A stretch of DNA of 32,000 nt from Methanothermobacter marburgensis str. Marburg (GCF_000145295.1 NC_014408.1:990001-1022000), one strand, 5' to 3'; shown: positions 4,878 through 14,326, numbered from the stretch's first letter. A program made the numbers and translations. The notes: a model not told the origin generated them from the sequence alone.

Positions 4878-5600
4878 TTATTCACCATACCTCTTTCTGA
4901 GGGCCTCTTTCTGAACCTCATGTATTCTGAGGCAACCCTCCACTGCCAGGTCAAGGGCCCTTTCAAATTCATCATCTGACAGGTTTCCATCACTCTGGAG
5001 AAGTGTGATCTCACGCGTCCTTGGTAGGATTGCAACCGGTACATCTGCCTGTCCGGCCTTGTCCTCCTCCTCAGAGAGGTCAAGGACGACCTGGTCGTTA
5101 ACCTTACCTGCGGCGCAGGCGACAACCATGTCCCTCATGGGTATCCCGGCATCTGCAAGGGCCACAGATGCCGCTGTGATACCCGCGCACCTCGTACCGC
5201 CCTCTGCCTCAAGGACCTCTATGAAGACATCTATGACGGACCTTGGAAACTTTTCAAGTATCAGTGCAGGCCTCAGGGCCTCCGCGGTTATCTTGGAAAT
5301 CTCAACAGAGCGCCTGTCGGGACCAGGCCTCTTTCTCTCCTCAACAGAGAATGGTGCCATGTTGTACCTGCACCTTATAACTGCCCGGTCAGGTCGCTGC
5401 AGCTTCCTTATCTGTGCCTCCCTTGGCCCGTAAACAGCTACAAGTATCTTGTTACCTCCAAATTCAAGGTAGGATGAACCGTCAGCCCTTTCAAGTATTC
5501 CAGCCTCAATTCTCAGGGGCCTGAGTTCATCAAATGCCCTTCCATCCTCCCTGACACTGGGGGAGGTTTTCAACTGATCCTGTGTGATGATACCAATCAC
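4878..5600 (-). CDS. rrp41: exosome complex exonuclease Rrp41 (RNase PH-like catalytic subunit)
   Basis: 240 aa containing ...[45 protein letters not shown]...[24 protein letters not shown]... The GTG start overlaps the rrp4 stop (GTGA, 5597-5600). Confidence 0.93.
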
Positions 5601-6460
5601 CTCTGTTCCTCGGAATTATTTTCATCGTCAACTTCTTCATGCCCTGACTCTTCGGCCTCGGATAATTCCTCTTCATCTTCTTCTAGGTCATCAGGGTTTT
5701 CTGTTTCTTCTTTCATCTCCTCGGCATCCTCAACTGGAGCCTCCGGTTCAGCCAATTCAGACCCATCATCCTCATCCAGGTCCTTGGGTTCAGTGCCGGT
5801 GAGTCTGTCCAGAAGCTCCCTTACACGGTCTGTGAGTCCTGATGTGTGGGCCTCACGGTCTATCATCAATATAACCCTCTCGGCTATCCTCTCCATGTCG
5901 GGTTCGCCCTTTATCCAGACGACTCCATTCTGGCCCACAACGATATCACAGTGGGTCTTCTCCTTGACCATGTTTATCATGGATCCCCTTTTGCCTATGA
6001 GCCTTGGAACCTTTGTTGGTGTTATGTATACCAGAATTCCGTCCCTGAACTTTCCAAGCCCGCGGCCCTTAAGGCCCAGTTTAACCTTTTTGACCTCGTC
6101 CACATCAACTACCCTTAAAAGGAGCACGTCGCCTATGTCAAAGACGTTCTCAAGTTCCCTTTTCTCCTTGCCGAAAACCTCTGACGCCGGCAGGAGCCCG
6201 CTGTAGGGGGAGTTTATATCCAGGCCCCACATTGAGAACCTTATATCAGTGATTTCACCGATCACCACATCTCCCCTTTTGGGGATGTACTTGCTCTGAA
6301 GTGGTATCACGTTTATCTTCTTATTTCTGACAGAAACAAGTCCAACGAATGATGAACATATTTTTTTACCCTCTTTGAAGGTCCCCCTGCCCGGGTAGTA
6401 ATCATTTTCTGCCAGAACCTGACCTGGGACAACCAGGTCCTTTTCATTTACGAGTAACAC
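5597..6460 (-). CDS. rrp4: exosome RNA-binding cap subunit Rrp4 (S1 + KH) with an acidic C-terminal tail
   Basis: 287 aa with a GTG start and SD GGGAGGC. It has an S1-like region ([30 protein letters not shown]) and a KH region ([36 protein letters not shown]). The last ~65 residues are D/E-rich. Confidence 0.9.
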
Positions 6461-6504
6461 ATTATGCCTCCCTGTTTTTTGAAGGCGAAAAAGGAGATGA
6501 GGGT

Positions 6505-7203
6505 TTACTTGATAATCCTGGTCTCAACGTTACCGCCGGTGAGTTCATTGATTTTCTGGTAGAAACTATCCTGAAGACCCCCTGGTATCTCAACCACCGC
6601 TATCCATGACCCGTCACTCTGCCATTCTTCATTCTTTATTTTTCCGAAATTGGATATCACACCGTAGGCTGGGCCGGCCCTGTCGCCTGGTATCTTTATG
6701 GCAACGGTGACCTTCTCGAATTTTATGGGTATCTTGGTCCTTATGGCCTTCAGGACAATGTTGACCTGCTCATCAACTGTTTTGAATGGATCAACGTGAA
6801 CCCTTGCTTCCTCCATTGCCTTTTCAATCCTTTTTGGAGGGTGAGGAAGTCCGTTCTGGGGGTTTATAGCTTCACGTGCAATCTTACTGATGATTTTTTT
6901 GCGTTTATCCTCTATCATCTGTCTTCTCTGTTCTGCAGTGAGCTGTATTGTCCCCCTCTGAAGTATTATGGGTGTTACCTCAAGAGGATCCGCTGTTTCA
7001 AAGACCTTCCTCATGGCCTCCTCAGATGCCTTATCACCCTTTCTGGCGTCCCTGAAGACCTCCTGGACCGCCAGAACATCCTCAACACTGACCTCTGAAT
7101 CCTCCCTCCGGAATTCAGCTGCAAGGTCAGGGTCCACTAGAATTTCGAATCTTTCGCCATGGGATTCGAGCCGGGCGATAACCGCATCTTCAAGGCTGAC
7201 CAT
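6505..7203 (-). CDS. SBDS-family ribosome maturation protein
   Basis: 232 aa starting [28 protein letters not shown]..., with ...[22 protein letters not shown]...[19 protein letters not shown]... The three-domain SBDS layout is visible. It starts 3 nt after the psmA stop. Confidence 0.9.
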
Positions 7204-7206
7204 TTT

Positions 7207-7953
<747 letters not shown>

Positions 7954-8016
7954 TTTTCTAACCTCTCTTTATTGATGGATAAATCTGGTAATCATGAGAC
8001 ATGTGATACAAATCAG

Positions 8017-8397
8017 TCAGTATTTATCTTTCTTGGAAGGTTTAATAAACTTTTGTGTTGCAGAGCGCACCGTTCCGGAGAGTCCCAGTATATGGAATAC
8101 CACCCTTGCCCCGCTGTGGTGGTGTGCAGCTGTGAGGGCAGCCATGACCTTTCCCTCGTAACCCCTCTGGCACTGAAGCACCCCCCTCATCCTTACTGCA
8201 TCCGGGAAACTACATCGCCAGAGTTTCATGAGCCATAAACGGAAATTTGATGTCTCACATTCGCCGTGGAGTTTGAGGCAGCTGTCCCATATGGCGGATA
8301 CGATTTCATCCCTTGAGAGCTCCCTCTCAGATATCAGTTCAAAGGCGATGTACCTCTTTGGGTTCCTGAGTGTGGGGGGGAGTATCTTCATTCTCAT
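8017..8397 (-). CDS. rnp2: RNase P protein component 2 (Pop5 homologue)
   Basis: 126 aa starting MRMKILPPTLRNPKRYIAFELISERELSRDEIVSAIWDSCLKLHGE... with a Pop5-type fold signature. It is adjacent to rnp3. Confidence 0.88.
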   Translation of the reverse strand: MRMKILPPTLRNPKRYIAFELISERELSRDEIVSAIWDSCLKLHGECETSNFRLWLMKLWRCSFPDAVRMRGVLQCQRGYEGKVMAALTAAHHHSGARVVFHILGLSGTVRSATQKFIKPSKKDKY

Positions 8398-8410
8398 GTC
8401 TTCACCGGGT

Positions 8411-8505
8411 TTCAGTCCTGTTCTTCGTCATCCACAAGCCTTTCCTTCCTATTCCAGTTCTTCCGTTGGCTGTGTTCAGTCCTCTTCCTCATCCTCCACA
8501 AGCCT
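8411..8505. repeat. 31-bp imperfect direct repeat duplicating the rnp3 3' end (offset 64 bp)
   Basis: Positions 8475-8505 hold the true last nine codons plus stop (RLVEDEEED*). Positions 8411-8441 hold a copy in the rnp3-rnp2 spacer that reads RLVDDEEQD*. Hand alignment gives 27/31 identity. Confidence 0.8.
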
Positions 8506-9201
8506 CACACCATCTGCAATCATAAGGGAGCGTTTGCGTGAGTATTCGATTATGGATGATGGTGTTGATGATAGGGCCCTCCCGGCCTCCCGGGTACTCA
8601 TCCCAAAGCACCCTGCCAGGTTCATGAGGTCACGGGGTGTGCGGAGGTCATATATTGATGATGCCCTGCTTGAGAGTAAGAGTGGAAAATCGAATTTTCT
8701 GTGGAGTTTAAGGATGTCCCTGAAGTACTCAAGAACCCTCGCCCTTACCTTGAGCCATGAGCCCATGATATCAGTGGTGACAAGTTCAACTGCAACCCTG
8801 TTCCTTGCAGCCTCCCTTGCGAGGACATGGTTCATGCCAGCGTCTCTCCTTGAGGAGTAGGGTGCAGAGAGGACATCCACCCGGGGGTTCTCACAGGCGG
8901 CGCGGTTCACCTTCAGGTCACCCCCTGAAACGTATACAACGTCGGCCTTCCTCCTGAAACGGTTAACCTTGCGCCTCATATCCTGGGGGTTCGAGGCGTT
9001 TATCATAACACCGGCTGCCACCTCAAGGCCACTGATTGCAGGGTTATCCCTCAGGAGTTCAATCTCTGGCTGGAGCCTGCTGTAGGTCTCATCGGAACAG
9101 ACCAGGACAGCCCCCTGGTAACCAAGACGGGAAGCCTCAGCAAGAAGTCTCAGACTGAAATCATGGTCACCTGCCTGAATATGGAAGTCAAAGAATTTCA
9201 T
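8476..9201 (-). CDS. rnp3: RNase P protein component 3 (Rpp30 homologue)
   Basis: MKFFDFHIQAGDHDFSLRLLAEASRLGYQGAVLV... has a TIM-barrel Rpp30 layout and is 241 aa from ATG 9201. The open frame continues upstream through three 18-codon repeat units to ATG 9363, which is the 295-aa track ORF. The native start is inferred to be 9201. Confidence 0.85.
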   Translation of the reverse strand: MKFFDFHIQAGDHDFSLRLLAEASRLGYQGAVLVCSDETYSRLQPEIELLRDNPAISGLEVAAGVMINASNPQDMRRKVNRFRRKADVVYVSGGDLKVNRAACENPRVDVLSAPYSSRRDAGMNHVLAREAARNRVAVELVTTDIMGSWLKVRARVLEYFRDILKLHRKFDFPLLLSSRASSIYDLRTPRDLMNLAGCFGMSTREAGRALSSTPSSIIEYSRKRSLMIADGVRLVEDEEED

Positions 9202-9455
9202 CTGCCTAGATGACCCACTTATTCGAGCATCCTCCTTGAAGTCAAAGAATTTCATCTGCCTAGATGACCCACTTATTCGAGCATCCTCCTTGAAGTCAAA
9301 GAATTTCATCTGCCTAGATGACCCACTTATTCGAGCATCCTCCTTGAAGTCAAAGAATTTCATCTGAACCCGCTGAAATCGGTTATTTGAGCATCCTAAT
9401 GGAAGTTAAAGAATTCATCTGGCTGGATGACTCAATTATTCAAGTAATTTCCTTA
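9184..9455. repeat. 54-bp tandem repeat array (3.4 identical units plus 2 decayed units) spanning the rnp3 start
   Basis: Identical units lie at 9184-9237, 9238-9291 and 9292-9345, with a partial unit at 9346-9366. Decayed units lie at 9346-9401 and 9402-9455. The last one contains the real stop of the upstream gene and is 43/54 identical to the consensus by hand alignment. Confidence 0.95.
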
Positions 9456-9843
9456 TATTCTCAGCTGCAACATCCCTCTTTGCAGGGTAGGCCTCCACCT
9501 TGATCTTGAGGTGTATTGCATCACCGTGCCTTACAGGTTTCCAGATCCCCTCAAGGGCCTCCTGTTTATCCAGTCGGATGAACAGGTTACCGTTTTCATC
9601 GAACCTGCCCTCGAGTTCATCCATTCTGCCCCTGAAGACTTCAATGAATTTTTCCATGAATTCTCTGAGAGCCCTTCTGCGGTCCACCCTGCCCCTTAAA
9701 ACTGTGATGGGGTTTCCATGGTAGCCCTCTGCCATTTCCCTTTCTGGTGCTGCACCGGGTATTATGTTCCTGAGGGCCTCAAGGACCTTTTCCTCGTCCT
9801 CGGTACCGTAAACCATTAGGCGGTAGGAGATGTTGTGTATCAT
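9436..9843 (-). CDS. predicted RNA-binding protein of the exosome superoperon (COG1325/DUF54-like)
   Basis: 135-aa ORF starting MIHNISYRLMVYGTEDEEKVLEALRNIIPG... Its size and its position between rpl15e and rnp3 match the uncharacterised predicted RNA-binding gene of the superoperon. The assignment rests on context and memory. Confidence 0.6.
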   Translation of the reverse strand: MIHNISYRLMVYGTEDEEKVLEALRNIIPGAAPEREMAEGYHGNPITVLRGRVDRRRALREFMEKFIEVFRGRMDELEGRFDENGNLFIRLDKQEALEGIWKPVRHGDAIHLKIKVEAYPAKRDVAAENIRKLLE

Positions 9844-9872
9844 TTTCCTCTAAAAATTAATTGAGTGGGGCT

Positions 9873-10418
9873 TTACCTTACCTTTTCAGCCCCTTTACCC
9901 CTGTTTCGGAGGCCCCTGTTCTTCTTACCTTCACTTGTGAGGCCCCTGAACACACGTCCCCTGTGCTGCTTTTCGCAGATCCAGTTTATTTTGGGGTCAT
10001 TCTTTATTGCTGGGTGGTTTGGATCAACGAGGATGACCTCATAGAACTTGTATTTTCCGTCCTCCCAGACCCAGTAGGAGTTGAGGACCTCCATGTTGGG
10101 GTATTTCCTTGCAACCCTTTCCTCTGCGATCCTCTTTATGCTCTTTGCAGTTGTGATTTTCTTAACACCCATTCTTTTGGGTCTTCTACCTGCCTTGAAC
10201 CTGGTTTTTCTCTGGCTACCGCGCCTCACACGTGTCCTCACGATTATGTATCCAGGTTTTGCCTTGTAACCAAGTGATCTTGCACGGTCTATTCTTGTTG
10301 GCCTTTCAATCCTTTTAATTACAGGGTCCCTTCTCCATTTTGGGGCCCTTTCCCACATAAGCTCCATTACATAGGAGTCCTTTGGATTTTTCCATGCGTC
10401 TTTAACATATTTGTACAT
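9873..10418 (-). CDS. rpl15e: 50S ribosomal protein L15e (eL15)
   Basis: 181 aa starting [57 protein letters not shown]..., canonical for L15e. SD GAGGTG lies upstream. It is the first gene of the superoperon. Confidence 0.96.
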
Positions 10419-10471
10419 TGTTTACACCTCTATTCTGTTCGGCTTTACGCCACATCCATGGGATCGTATCC

Positions 10472-10522
10472 CTTAAAAATAGCGGTTTATGTACTACTAC
10501 ATTTGATGTGGTCACTTAAAAA
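10472..10522 (-). promoter_or_regulatory. two TTTTTAAG TATA-like elements upstream of rpl15e (candidate superoperon promoter)
   Basis: The plus-strand motif cttaaaaa occurs at 10472-10479 and 10515-10522, about 55 and 98 nt upstream of the ATG. A 5-bp hairpin gggat-acg-atccc lies between the proximal box and the SD. Confidence 0.3.
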
Positions 10523-10771
10523 GTTTACTGTTGGTTCCATGAATAAATCTGTTTATGCACGATTTTAGTGTCATTAACCATTTGTGTATGTCTGAATTTA
10601 AGTCCATTAAGCTAGATTAAGCTGGAATTTGATATCCGGTAAACATGATGCAGATAATCCAAATCAGAAAATCATGATATCATCACATATCTTACCGGCT
10701 ATTGATTTTAGTATAATCTATATCTAAATGGAGGTAGATATTAATATAATATTTGTTTCGGGGGGTTGAAT

Positions 10772-12823
10772 GTGAAGTACGTCAAATTTTGCTCTTTGCT
10801 GGCTGTGGCTTTTTTGTTTGTTTTGTTTTTTTCTGGAACTTCAGCAGCTGTTTCACGGAATGAAAGAACTGGAAAAATTTATATGACCATCCAGGAGGCT
10901 ATAGACGATAGTGAAGTTCAGGATACTATAGTGGTGGATGCTGGAACTTATGAAGAAAACATAGTTATAAACAGAGAAAATTTAACTCTGAAAGCAAACG
11001 GAACAGTAATAATAGATGGATGGCGTGACAGAGAACCTGTAATAAATATAACGGCCAATGGGTCAAAAATAAACGGTTTTACGCTGATCAATGGTACTCA
11101 TGGAATATATTCATCTGCTGGCTGGTGTAACCTGACAAAGAACGTCATAAGACACAACGATATAGCAATCTGGCTAATGGACTCCGATAACAGCGTGATC
11201 CAGGAAAATGAAATAACTGATAATACTGGTGGAATAGTTCTAATATCATCAAACAGGAACATTATATCCAGAAATAATATAAGCAGTGAGGGATCCGGAA
11301 TTTCTCTTGAATCCTCAGCTGAAAACACAATTTCCAGTAACATTATAAGAAACTGTCTCAACGGAATCGAAGCTGGGTTCTCACCTTCAAATGTAATCAG
11401 AGAAAACAGGATAGAGGACATAACAGAGAATGCTATTTGCCTTCTGACCTCACTCAACAGTGTCTTAAGGAGTAACTCCATCATCAACGCATCTAGAGCC
11501 ATTAAAATTGGGGGAGGGGACAACTCAGTTGGCCATTTTATCCAGAACATAGATACCTCAAATACCATTGACGGTAAACCAGTCTATTATCTCACTGGAA
11601 TCTCCAACAGGGTCTACAATGGAATCCAAATGGGCTACCTTGCACTTGTGGGCTGCAGGAATGTAACCATAAAAAACGTTGCCCTCTCAAAATGTGGTAA
11701 TGGAATAATACTTGCAAATACAAACAGTTCAAGGATCGAAAACTGCAACATAAGCGATGATGACTATGGTATCTTCCTGTTGCAGTCCAGTAAAAACACC
11801 ATTCAGAGTAACAGGGTACACATGGCCAGATATGATGGTATTTTTATACACTATTCCAGTAACAACACCATTCTGGGAAATAAAATAAGCTTTAGCGGCA
11901 ATAGGGGCATACATGTCACGGGTTCATTCAATACAATCTATGGTAATCTTTTATTGAACAATTCAGTGGGATTACTTATATCAGCTTACAGCAAGGGCAA
12001 CAGGGTCTATGGAAACAGCTTCATAAACAATGGTATTCAGGCGGAAAATGAAGGTGGTTTAACCAATGTTTTCAATCTCACGCGGCCCACTGGAGGTAAC
12101 TACTGGAGCGACTACACCGGGGAGGATAAAAATGGGGATAACTTCGGGGACACTCCCTACACCTTTAGCGGTGGAGCCGACAGCCTTCCGCTCATCAGAG
12201 ATCCTCTGCAGAAACTTAAAGTGGTATCCATGGATCCGCCAAACGGTTCCATGAGCGTTTCAAGGACAAAAAGCCTTGTAATAACCTTCAGCTCCATTAT
12301 CATAGCCGGAACTAAATATTACAGTATAACAGTCAGAAAATCTACAGGTGCTCTAAAATCAATCATCCAGAGTATAAGCGGCAACAGGCTCATCATAACA
12401 CCCGTTGGAGGCTGGGATCCCGGTGTCAAGTTCACAGTCAGAATACCTGTGAATGCCATAGAAAATATTGCAGGAACCACCCTATCAGTGGACTTCACAT
12501 CAAATTTCACGTCTGCCATTGCAGTAACAGCCATTGATCCCAGAAGTGGTGCAACAGGTGTTTCAAGGACCAAAGTAATTGTCATAACATTCAGTAACAG
12601 CATACTTGCCGGCCCCAGCTACAGATCAATAACTGTAAAAACATCTGCCGGCCGGCTGAAGCCCATCAGTAAGAGAATAAGTGGCAACAGGCTCTACATA
12701 AAACCAGTTGGAAGCTGGAGTGCCCGTACAAGGTACATCATCACTGTTCCAAGGACTGCAGTTAAGACCAGCACAGGTAACATGATGGCAGTAGATTTCA
12801 AATCAACATTCACAACAAGATAA
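10772..12823 (+). CDS. secreted/surface protein: signal peptide, parallel beta-helix (PbH1/NosD-like) repeats and two C-terminal Ig-like (SbsA/Big_5-type) domains
   Basis: The N-terminus KYVKFCSLLAVAFLFVLFFSGTSAAVS is a signal/anchor. Residues ~100-440 carry many 22-25-aa repeats of type N.I.GN.I..N..GI.L..S..N.I. Two ~101-aa tandem domains follow. I prefer the GTG 10772 start (GGGGGG 6 nt upstream); the track start is TTG 10766. Confidence 0.75.
   Translation: MKYVKFCSLLAVAFLFVLFFSGTSAAVSRNERTGKIYMTIQEAIDDSEVQDTIVVDAGTYEENIVINRENLTLKANGTVIIDGWRDREPVINITANGSKINGFTLINGTHGIYSSAGWCNLTKNVIRHNDIAIWLMDSDNSVIQENEITDNTGGIVLISSNRNIISRNNISSEGSGISLESSAENTISSNIIRNCLNGIEAGFSPSNVIRENRIEDITENAICLLTSLNSVLRSNSIINASRAIKIGGGDNSVGHFIQNIDTSNTIDGKPVYYLTGISNRVYNGIQMGYLALVGCRNVTIKNVALSKCGNGIILANTNSSRIENCNISDDDYGIFLLQSSKNTIQSNRVHMARYDGIFIHYSSNNTILGNKISFSGNRGIHVTGSFNTIYGNLLLNNSVGLLISAYSKGNRVYGNSFINNGIQAENEGGLTNVFNLTRPTGGNYWSDYTGEDKNGDNFGDTPYTFSGGADSLPLIRDPLQKLKVVSMDPPNGSMSVSRTKSLVITFSSIIIAGTKYYSITVRKSTGALKSIIQSISGNRLIITPVGGWDPGVKFTVRIPVNAIENIAGTTLSVDFTSNFTSAIAVTAIDPRSGATGVSRTKVIVITFSNSILAGPSYRSITVKTSAGRLKPISKRISGNRLYIKPVGSWSARTRYIITVPRTAVKTSTGNMMAVDFKSTFTTR
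12215..12820 (+). repeat. intragenic tandem duplication of a ~303-nt Ig-like domain module
   Basis: 12215-12517 encodes LKVVSMDPPNGSMSVSRTKSLVITFSS...ISGNRLIITPVGGW...SVDFTSNFTS. 12518-12820 encodes IAVTAIDPRSGATGVSRTKVIVITFSN...ISGNRLYIKPVGSW...AVDFKSTFTT. The two are roughly 45% identical at the protein level by eye. Confidence 0.8.
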
Positions 12824-13345: not shown

Positions 13346-14326
13346 TCACTGTTTTTCCTGAAATTCTGGGGATGCTGGTTTTTTCTCTGCTTCTGATGGC
13401 TCAGATTTTTTCGATGTTTTTTCAGATGCCCTTGAGGGGTCAGAGAGCATCTCTGAGATCCCTGCAATTGAACCCAGAATACCTGTGGCCTCCACAGGGA
13501 GAAGTATCTTTGTGGCCCTTCCATCGGCAACCTTCTCAAGGGCCTCAAGGTATTTGAGTGCTATTATATCATTCGTCGGGTCCCCCTCGTGCATTGCCCT
13601 GAAAACCGAGAGTATGGCCTTGGCCTGACCCTCTGCTATGGCTATCTCCCGGTACTTGTTGGCGTCTGCAACCTTCTTTATGGCCTCGGCCTTACCCTCT
13701 GCCTCAAGGATGGCTGCCTGTTTATCACCCTCAGCCCTCTTTATCTCTGACTGCTTGTAACCCTCTGCCTCGAGGATGGCCGCCCTCTTCATACGTTCGG
13801 CCTTCATCTGCTTTGACATGGCCTCAACTATGTCTCCGGGTGGTTCTATGCGCTGTATCTCCACACGGACAACCCTGGTACCCCACTTGTCTGTGGCCTC
13901 ATCTAGGACCTCGCGGAGCTGGGTGTTTATCATCTCCCTTGATGTGAGGGTCTGGTCCAGTTCAAGGTCCCCTATTATGTTCCTGAGGTTTGTCTGGGCC
14001 AGCTTGGTTATGGCCTGGTAGAAGTCAACCACGTTGTAGACCGCATTGAAGGGGTCAACCACCTCATAGAATATGACGCAGTCCACAACAACGACTGTGT
14101 TGTCCTTGGTTATGACCTCCTGTGGTGGTACATCAACCACCTGCTCCCTCATGTCAACCTTCTTTATGGCCTCTATGAACGGGATTATAACAACGAGGCC
14201 GCTTTCGACTGTCCTCTGATATTTACCGAGCCTTTCAACAACACCCTTCTCGTAGGGTCTGAGTATTTTCAGGCTCTTGAATGCCAGTACAAGGAGTACA
14301 AGTACAATTATTATTTCAAGAAGCAT
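13346..14326 (-). CDS. SPFH/band-7 family protein (stomatin/prohibitin homologue)
   Basis: 326 aa with an N-terminal TM ([16 protein letters not shown]), an SPFH core (...[29 protein letters not shown]...[18 protein letters not shown]...) and a coiled-coil AEAEG repeats region. Confidence 0.92.

Follow-up and report, generated by a model that had tools for sequence, protein, structure and literature searches.

A tandem array reiterating the rnp3 start-codon junction varies in copy number in Methanothermobacter marburgensis and related genomes

Prokaryotic variable-number tandem repeats (VNTRs), or minisatellites, are built of at least two head-to-tail units of about 10-100 bp; they include in-frame coding repeats and the loci used in multiple-locus VNTR analysis (MLVA) typing, and their copy number varies among close strains between conserved flanks, presumably through slippage or unequal recombination. 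Repeats in the 5' coding part of a gene underlie the phase variation of contingency loci in Neisseria and Haemophilus. Nested N-terminal isoforms, such as the forms of bacterial initiation factor IF2, are made from alternative in-frame starts. Also related are MIRUs (mycobacterial interspersed repetitive units), which are short variable-number tandem units between co-oriented operon genes, in which stop and start signals together with small open reading frames (ORFs) keep translation flowing downstream; these form a dispersed, apparently mobile family at many loci, and a -4 nt overlap couples them to the downstream gene (PMC12548453). Here we describe a tandem array of Methanothermobacter marburgensis str. 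Marburg that recalls each of these systems in part. It lies in the 32,000-nt stretch NC_014408.1:990001-1022000 (hereafter the window, in whose coordinates positions are given), at the 5' end of rnp3, the gene of RNase P subunit Rpp30, and its unit is a copy of the junction between rnp3 and the gene upstream of it, which encodes a PF01877 protein. It is the content of the unit that is unusual: an essential gene carries in-frame copies of a complete gene junction, start codon included. Searches of the literature for an earlier account of the rnp3 repeat, or of any start-codon-reiterating VNTR, gave nothing relevant.

Tandem Repeats Finder reports a single strong array at 9184-9441 (period 54, 4.8 copies, score 372). 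A repeat search found exact 75-nt repeats in register from 9184, 9238 and 9292, so that periodicity is perfect over 9184-9366, and a degenerate fourth copy of 85% identity at 9383-9415. A preliminary description, made by reading the window alone, had proposed three identical 54-bp units followed by two decayed ones; both programs agree with it, and in our coordinates the former lie at 9184-9345 (U4, U3 and U2) and the latter at 9346-9454 (U1 and U0). Our reading of the coding strand, which is the minus strand, also agrees exactly with the composition proposed there for the unit, namely a relic of the upstream gene's end with its TAA, a 17-nt spacer and the first six rnp3 codons (Table 1). The rnp3 frame indeed stays open through the whole array in a 295-aa ORF, with in-frame ATGs at 9363, 9309, 9255 and 9201. 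A 31-nt core of the unit has three matches in the window, all of them inside the array, where shuffled sequences lead one to expect 0.00, and an exact-pattern metagenome scan for the unit returned the rnp3 locus only (sole match AMZC01000617.1, which adds no further allele).

The number of identical units differs from strain to strain between shared flanks, with one, two or three copies found. The window has three copies (product ADL58669.1), and its 295-aa product recurs in another M. marburgensis record, WBF09244.1. Strain KEPCO-1, sequenced as a complete genome (CP042937.1), likewise has three identical units, and its flanks differ from the window at scattered positions; KEPCO-1 is thus an independent strain, and an assembly artefact is excluded. 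The draft GCA_041928885.1 carries two copies (277-aa product), while at least nine independent metagenome assemblies carry one (259-aa product) between flanks that are 100% identical. These one-copy assemblies were drawn from ENA, JGI, NCBI and Logan and include MEGAHIT contigs at k=127 and k=141, values at which three genuine copies could not be reduced to one by assembly. In the one-copy contigs and in locus L045 the immediate flanks show 100% identity; two bases of the U0 spacer differ in locus L044 and in KEPCO-1. Three further k=127 contigs, from the biogas-fermenter project PRJEB21266, stop inside the array after exactly 127 nt of periodic sequence, one entering from the left and two from the right. 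Such breaks are what a de Bruijn graph is expected to give once the periodic tract exceeds k+54, and they therefore point to three or more copies or to a mixture of alleles. Isolates DP and K4, which belong to sister lineages, appear to have one extension unit, judging from their 259-aa products.

Table 1. Genes and array elements of the rnp3 locus, in window coordinates
Feature	Position	Strand	Description
SBDS	6505-7203	minus	
Proteasome alpha subunit (psmA)	7207-7953	minus	
Pop5/Rpp14	8017-8397	minus	Public record ADL58668.1
rnp3 (Rpp30), family-typical start	8476..9201	minus	241 aa, N-terminus MKFFDFHIQ
rnp3, longest ORF	8476..9363	minus	295 aa, N-terminus (MKFFDFKEDARISGSSRQ)x3; product as publicly annotated
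Identical units, together	9184..9345	minus	Three 54-bp units, each in the order AAGGAGGATGCTCGAATAA (upstream gene-end relic + TAA) / GTGGGTCATCTAGGCAG (17-nt spacer with SD-like GGGTCATC) / ATGAAATTCTTTGACTTC (rnp3 codons 1-6)
U4	9184-9237	minus	Identical unit
U3	9238-9291	minus	Identical unit
U2	9292-9345	minus	Identical unit
U1	9346..9401	minus	Older unit, 56 nt: relic CATTAGGATGCTCAAATAA, deviant 19-nt spacer CCGATTTCAGCGGGTTCAG, in-frame ATG 9363, then MKFFDF
Small ORF	9383..9418	minus	11 codons, MNSLTSIRMLK*; starts at the U0 pseudo-start, 17 nt past the upstream stop
U0	9402..9454	minus	Outermost unit: genuine last codons of the PF01877 gene (RKLLE*), TAA 9438-9436, 17-nt spacer TTGAGTCATCCAGCCAG
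U0 pseudo-start	9418	minus	ATGAATTCTTTAACTTC: ATG, 1-nt deletion
PF01877 'RNA_binding' gene	9436..9843	minus	135 aa, ADL58670.1; annotated as predicted exosome subunit
Ribosomal protein L15e	9873-10418	minus	
SD, Shine-Dalgarno.

With three exact and two decayed head-to-tail units, a unit length of tens of bp that is a multiple of three, and a copy number that varies among close strains with conserved flanks, the array behaves as a prokaryotic VNTR. It differs from the usual examples in that the unit is neither an internal protein repeat nor anonymous intergenic DNA but a reiterated gene junction (stop relic, SD-like spacer, start and six codons), and in that an essential gene gains a further potential in-frame initiation site with each unit. 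Like MIRUs, the array is intercistronic, being located between two co-oriented operon genes in their own orientation, and the small ORF in U0 is comparable to the internal ORF of a MIRU. However, the rnp3 unit is locally derived and, in the window and in the metagenome scan, is seen only at its own locus, its spacings are of 17-19 nt, its copies are in frame with the downstream gene instead of forming separate ORFs, and the host is an archaeon; the lone separate small ORF ends 19 nt before the next ATG and shows no -4 nt overlap with a downstream start. As for IF2-type isoforms, several in-frame starts on one mRNA would likewise give a ladder of proteins sharing their C-terminal body, although the starts of rnp3 arise by reiteration of one initiation region, so that their number is polymorphic, and the extra ones are putative. 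Finally, the array recalls contingency loci in being a repeat tract that a gene carries at its 5' end and that shifts in copy number by slippage; but since 54 is a multiple of three, changes in copy number produce length polymorphism only (the 259-, 277- and 295-aa ORFs are all open), without an on/off switch, and the array is therefore not a phase-variable contingency locus.

Comparison with related genomes allows the history of the array to be traced. In M. defluvii-type loci there is one junction, with 21 nt between the PF01877 stop and the rnp3 ATG, and a second Methanothermobacter lineage, with a 247-aa Rpp30 (L024), also has a single junction, of 18 nt. In every lineage of the M. marburgensis clade that we read at the DNA level, an array occupies the same site; besides the M. 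marburgensis-type strains, these are a Kamchatka metagenome-assembled genome (MAG; L001), a Logan contig (L019) and two further MAGs (L052 and L053), with Rpp30 about 90% identical to that of the window. Within each of these four loci the units have diverged from one another, which implies that the first duplications are older than the splits among these lineages, and in all four there is an orthologous U1-type unit with its odd, TTCCAGCAGGGTTCAG-like spacer and ATG. In the other array-bearing lineages, as far as compared at the DNA level, the unit equivalent to U0 has suffered a frameshift or no longer has an ATG. In L001 the upstream gene truly ends in AAGGAAGATGCTCCAATAG, which matches the relic in the Marburg unit at 16 of 19 positions, against only 14 of 19 for the gene end of the window itself; hence the relic stems from the 3' end of the upstream gene. 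A scan of a genome collection with Rpp30 gave L001 as the only Methanothermobacter locus, the others being from Methanobacterium or unclassified Methanobacteriaceae, and further alleles came from exact-protein look-ups.

From these comparisons we conclude that the single junction is the ancestral state and the array a derived, clade-specific one; that an old duplication left the two decayed units U0 and U1; and that the rnp3-proximal unit has changed in number recently, all of its copies being identical, as slippage or unequal recombination between 54-bp repeats predicts. It is thus very probable that the locus is a minisatellite, subject to slippage or unequal recombination, which originated when the intercistronic junction of the PF01877 gene with rnp3 was duplicated in tandem. 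The preliminary description had supposed just such a junction, duplicated, diverged and recently expanded again, and had suspected a variable-number locus; the single junctions outside the clade, the diverged arrays of the ~90% identical relatives and the one-, two- and three-copy alleles with otherwise identical flanks bear this out. Its guess of Methanothermobacter as the genus is likewise correct. The assembly artefact that it had named as a possible refutation does not apply, the three-copy array being real. An origin by microhomology was considered and rejected: although the upstream gene end GAAATTACTTGA and the rnp3 start GAAATTCTTTGA are similar, their separation of ~35 nt does not fit a 54-nt unit.

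Some further observations concern the same region. At 2860-2900 of L001, the U1-type relic has turned into a TATA-like TATAAATTATAAAT, ~19 nt before the conserved upstream ATG; this motif, possibly an archaeal TATA box that would yield a leaderless or short-leader rnp3 transcript, is unconserved in the other lineages. Relative to loci L047-L051, positions 5297-9896 of the window form a sharp-edged 4.6-kb tract that is 100% identical to metagenome contigs otherwise 73-88% identical. This tract holds the PF01877 gene, rnp3, pop5, psmA, SBDS and part of rrp4, is found in independent assemblies from several samples, and looks as though part of the exosome/RNase P cluster had recently recombined or been transferred between two Methanothermobacter backbones. 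KEPCO-1 (L055) gives another hint that the rnp3 locus is a mosaic shaped by recombination: against positions 8001-8750 of the window it has 26 mismatches, clustered in the 3' end of rnp3 and in pop5, yet 10001-12500 is identical.

Six genes are annotated at 6505-10418, all on the minus strand and separated by short gaps, and both genes that flank the array belong to the archaeal exosome/RNase P/proteasome gene cluster of M. marburgensis and close relatives. The identity of Rpp30 is supported both by a profile and by solved structures: the protein matches Pfam PF01876 (RNase_P_p30) with an E-value of 3.7e-48 and PDB 6K0A chain C with an E-value of 4e-30, as well as 3WYZ and 1V77. Since the Pfam match covers residues 58-266 of the 295-aa ORF, profile position 1 falling on residue 58, the ATG at 9201 is the family-typical start; in array-less lineages, the N-terminus of the homologues reads MKFFDFHI or MKFLDLHI. 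An exact-sequence look-up showed that the window's 295-aa Rpp30 is identical to ADL58669.1, WBF09244.1, WP_013295892.1 and UniRef100_D9PWS1, so the triple N-terminal repeat is already part of the public annotation.

Whether the array is translated is the point on which explanations diverge. As a whole, we favor, with some reserve, a lineage-specific copy-variable minisatellite from which Rpp30 isoforms with a tolerated N-terminal extension are probably made. Each identical unit contains the full rnp3 translation initiation region, and 9309 and 9255 are therefore possible starts in addition to 9201. The array would be transcribed within a polycistronic mRNA, on which ribosomes would start at 9309 and 9255 besides 9201, and perhaps at the older conserved ATG 9363; the products would be Rpp30 with 0, 18, 36 or 54 extra residues. 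These residues would form a disordered tail ahead of beta-strand 1 of the TIM barrel, which RNase P would tolerate, and copy number would drift in an essentially neutral way. That the identical upstream initiation regions are in use, and that Rpp30 is present in cells as a mixed population whose disordered tails are tolerated, seems to us slightly better than an even bet. The explanation that survives best beside it, possible but on balance doubtful, is that the array is silent untranslated intercistronic RNA, that 9201 is the sole start, and that the 295-aa annotation is an artefact of gene callers choosing the longest ORF.

Several lines of evidence speak for translation and against such a silent relic. 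The sequence around the ATGs at 9309, 9255 and 9201 is identical from 36 nt upstream to 18 nt downstream. With GAUCACCUCCU, which we take to be the 3' end of 16S rRNA, the predicted Shine-Dalgarno (SD) pairing at 37 C amounts to -7.0 kcal/mol for each of the three, compared with -7.4 for psmA, and folding predicts similar start accessibility for all copies, with no copy-dependent change for 0-5 copies at 37 and 65 C. Judging from the sequence, we found no feature by which a ribosome could tell 9309, 9255 and 9201 apart. In five lineages the U1 ATG precedes the canonical start by 54, 54, 54, 54 and 105 nt (one extra unit accounts for 51 nt), and this segment is always open, free of stops and frameshifts, whereas the adjacent 72-nt untranslated segment upstream of the U1-type ATG has accumulated ~7 small indels, mostly frameshifting. 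Under a uniform model the probability of such frame preservation next to an indel-rich neighbor is ~0.02, which is suggestive, the model being crude and the sample small. Lastly, in MAG GCA_030055425.1 (L052, ~1555-1557; JASFYE010000001.1) the canonical rnp3 start is ATT, and the upstream, repeat-derived ATG is the sole remaining standard start.

On the other side, a number of points weigh against translated extensions, weaken the evidence just given or are neutral. The reading frame is kept partly by the very construction of the unit (54 = 18 codons). The ATT start is known from one MAG, for which a consensus error or a rare AUU start is equally possible. SD pairing at the U1 ATG, at -4.5 kcal/mol, does not stand out from background (median -4.2), and at 65 C the rnp3 initiation region pairs weakly (-1.3 kcal/mol), so that SD strength alone says little about the choice of start. 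The start at 9201 coincides with that of the Pfam model and of every homologue outside the clade. Within the extension, the lineages differ by ~9 non-synonymous and ~3 synonymous changes in a count made by hand; this is roughly neutral and suggests that selection does not act on the peptide as such. Rpp30 has no entry in the supplement to the paper on the M. marburgensis proteome. As regards the polymorphism, the two-copy allele is the least secure, being found in one draft, and at k<=127 the shortest path through an assembly loop would turn three copies into two, in which case this allele could be a collapsed three-copy array.

In an AlphaFold2 model of the 295-aa protein, residues 1-52 have a predicted local distance difference test (pLDDT) score below 50, at ~30, the first beta-strand comprises residues 58-63, and the core, with pLDDT >90, shows the alternating strand-helix pattern expected of the Rpp30 barrel. 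If made, the 54-residue extension would thus be modelled as a disordered, floppy tail attached directly to beta-strand 1. The paper on the cryo-EM structure of M. jannaschii RNase P (PMC6565675) assigns roles to the C-terminal tail of Rpp30 and leaves its N-terminus unmentioned. Peptides diagnostic of an extended Rpp30 would be ISGSSR, QMKFFDFK, QMKFFDFHIQAGDHDFSLR and the span ...ISGSSRQMKFFDF..., while a protein started at 9201 would have the N-terminus (M)KFFDFHIQAGDHDFSLR.

Growth of the array has also moved rnp3 away from its upstream neighbor. The PF01877 stop and the canonical rnp3 start are ~17-21 nt apart in a single junction; one copy brings this interval to 125 nt, three copies to 233 nt. 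Termination-reinitiation coupling in archaea is reported to fade beyond ~30 nt (review, PMC12548453), and the distance from the stop to 9201 is far above this value, so direct coupling to 9201 has probably been lost. It is tempting to suppose that the small ORF in U0 may act as a termination-reinitiation relay passing ribosomes on to ATG 9363: its stop is the relic TAA of U1 (9385-9383), 19 nt ahead of that ATG. Similar small ORFs are found in L052, L053 and L019, and none in L001. Two other candidate signals were discarded. AAGGAGG as a working SD would lie ~30 nt from the next in-frame ATG, and it directly abuts an out-of-frame one; the mini-ORF after each TAA (GTG...TGA overlapping the ATG), considered as a coupling device, is a trivial outcome of the 17-nt spacer followed by ATGA, and is unconserved (CTG in L019).

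Stronger functional readings fare less well. We regard it as rather unlikely that all the reiterated starts are used in such a manner that one-, two- and three-copy strains have different ladders and amounts of extended Rpp30, the array serving as an evolvable start-site or dosage tuner and the upstream start being the sole one in at least one lineage (that with ATT). Quite improbable is an adaptive locus in which copy number sets the dosage or isoform mix of Rpp30 and, through coupling, affects also pop5 and psmA, with selection acting for instance in fast-growing cultivated strains. Such a locus would fit the gain of a complete initiation region with every added unit, as well as the fact that both cultivated isolates with the exact unit (Marburg and KEPCO-1) have three copies while most environmental contigs have one. 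But this sample is tiny and phylogenetically non-independent, biogas-fermenter metagenomes also seem to hold three or more copies, the isolates DP and K4 appear to have a single extension unit, and a unit that is a multiple of three does not permit the on/off switching of classical contingency loci. Nothing that we found supports selection on copy number. The length polymorphism is real and probably near-neutral, and the functional significance of the array is probably small.

We consider very improbable that the repeat is a functional RNA or DNA element, be it a folded regulatory RNA, a platform to which proteins bind or an internal promoter serving rnp3-pop5-psmA. Such an element might be suspected from the U1-type spacer, which is well conserved across lineages, from the TATA-like motif of L001, and from a 6-bp hairpin, UCAUCU-AGGC-AGAUGA, which pairs the SD-like region with the start codon at 9198-9213 and in each identical unit. 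The hairpin is part of the minimum-free-energy fold at 37 C but is essentially melted at 65 C, and the TATA-like motif is limited to L001. Shuffled sequence folds as well as the array RNA (z = 0.12), which contains no inverted repeats of at least 12 nt, and an Rfam scan of 8900-9900 in E-value mode gave matches at chance level only, the best being a C/D-box snoRNA model with 17 bits against a threshold of 65. The supposition that the three identical copies are an assembly artefact, which the single copy in most short-read assemblies might invite, deserves next to no credence in view of the M. marburgensis record, the second record with the same product, the independent complete KEPCO-1 genome, the k=127 contigs that break just where three or more copies predict, and the diverged multi-unit arrays of relatives, which cannot be artefacts.

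If the extension is never translated, the array is an ordinary neutral repeat. Be that as it may, the locus offers a natural experiment on the choice of start codons, with two or three ATGs in identical context on one mRNA at growing distance from the upstream stop; its natural one- and three-copy alleles in otherwise near-identical strains could separate local SD-based initiation from termination-reinitiation coupling. For annotation, it means that the public 295-, 277- and 259-aa Rpp30 entries differ solely in repeat number, and the array could be used as a strain marker for M. marburgensis-type biomethanation strains.

Two minor features of the window lie outside the array. A gene for a 685-aa NosD/beta-helix repeat protein with a signal-peptide-like N-terminus (10766-12823, plus strand) stands on the opposite strand between the L15e gene and a CMD-family gene; it is present in the window, KEPCO-1 and L034 and absent from loci of the L047 and M. 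defluvii (L020) types and from L024, in all of which the CMD and L15e genes are neighbors. At 13694-13784, within a Band_7/SPFH gene (13346-14326, minus strand), there is a repeat with a 33-bp period (2.8 copies, 63% matches), which is an ordinary AAILEAEG-type coiled-coil coding repeat.

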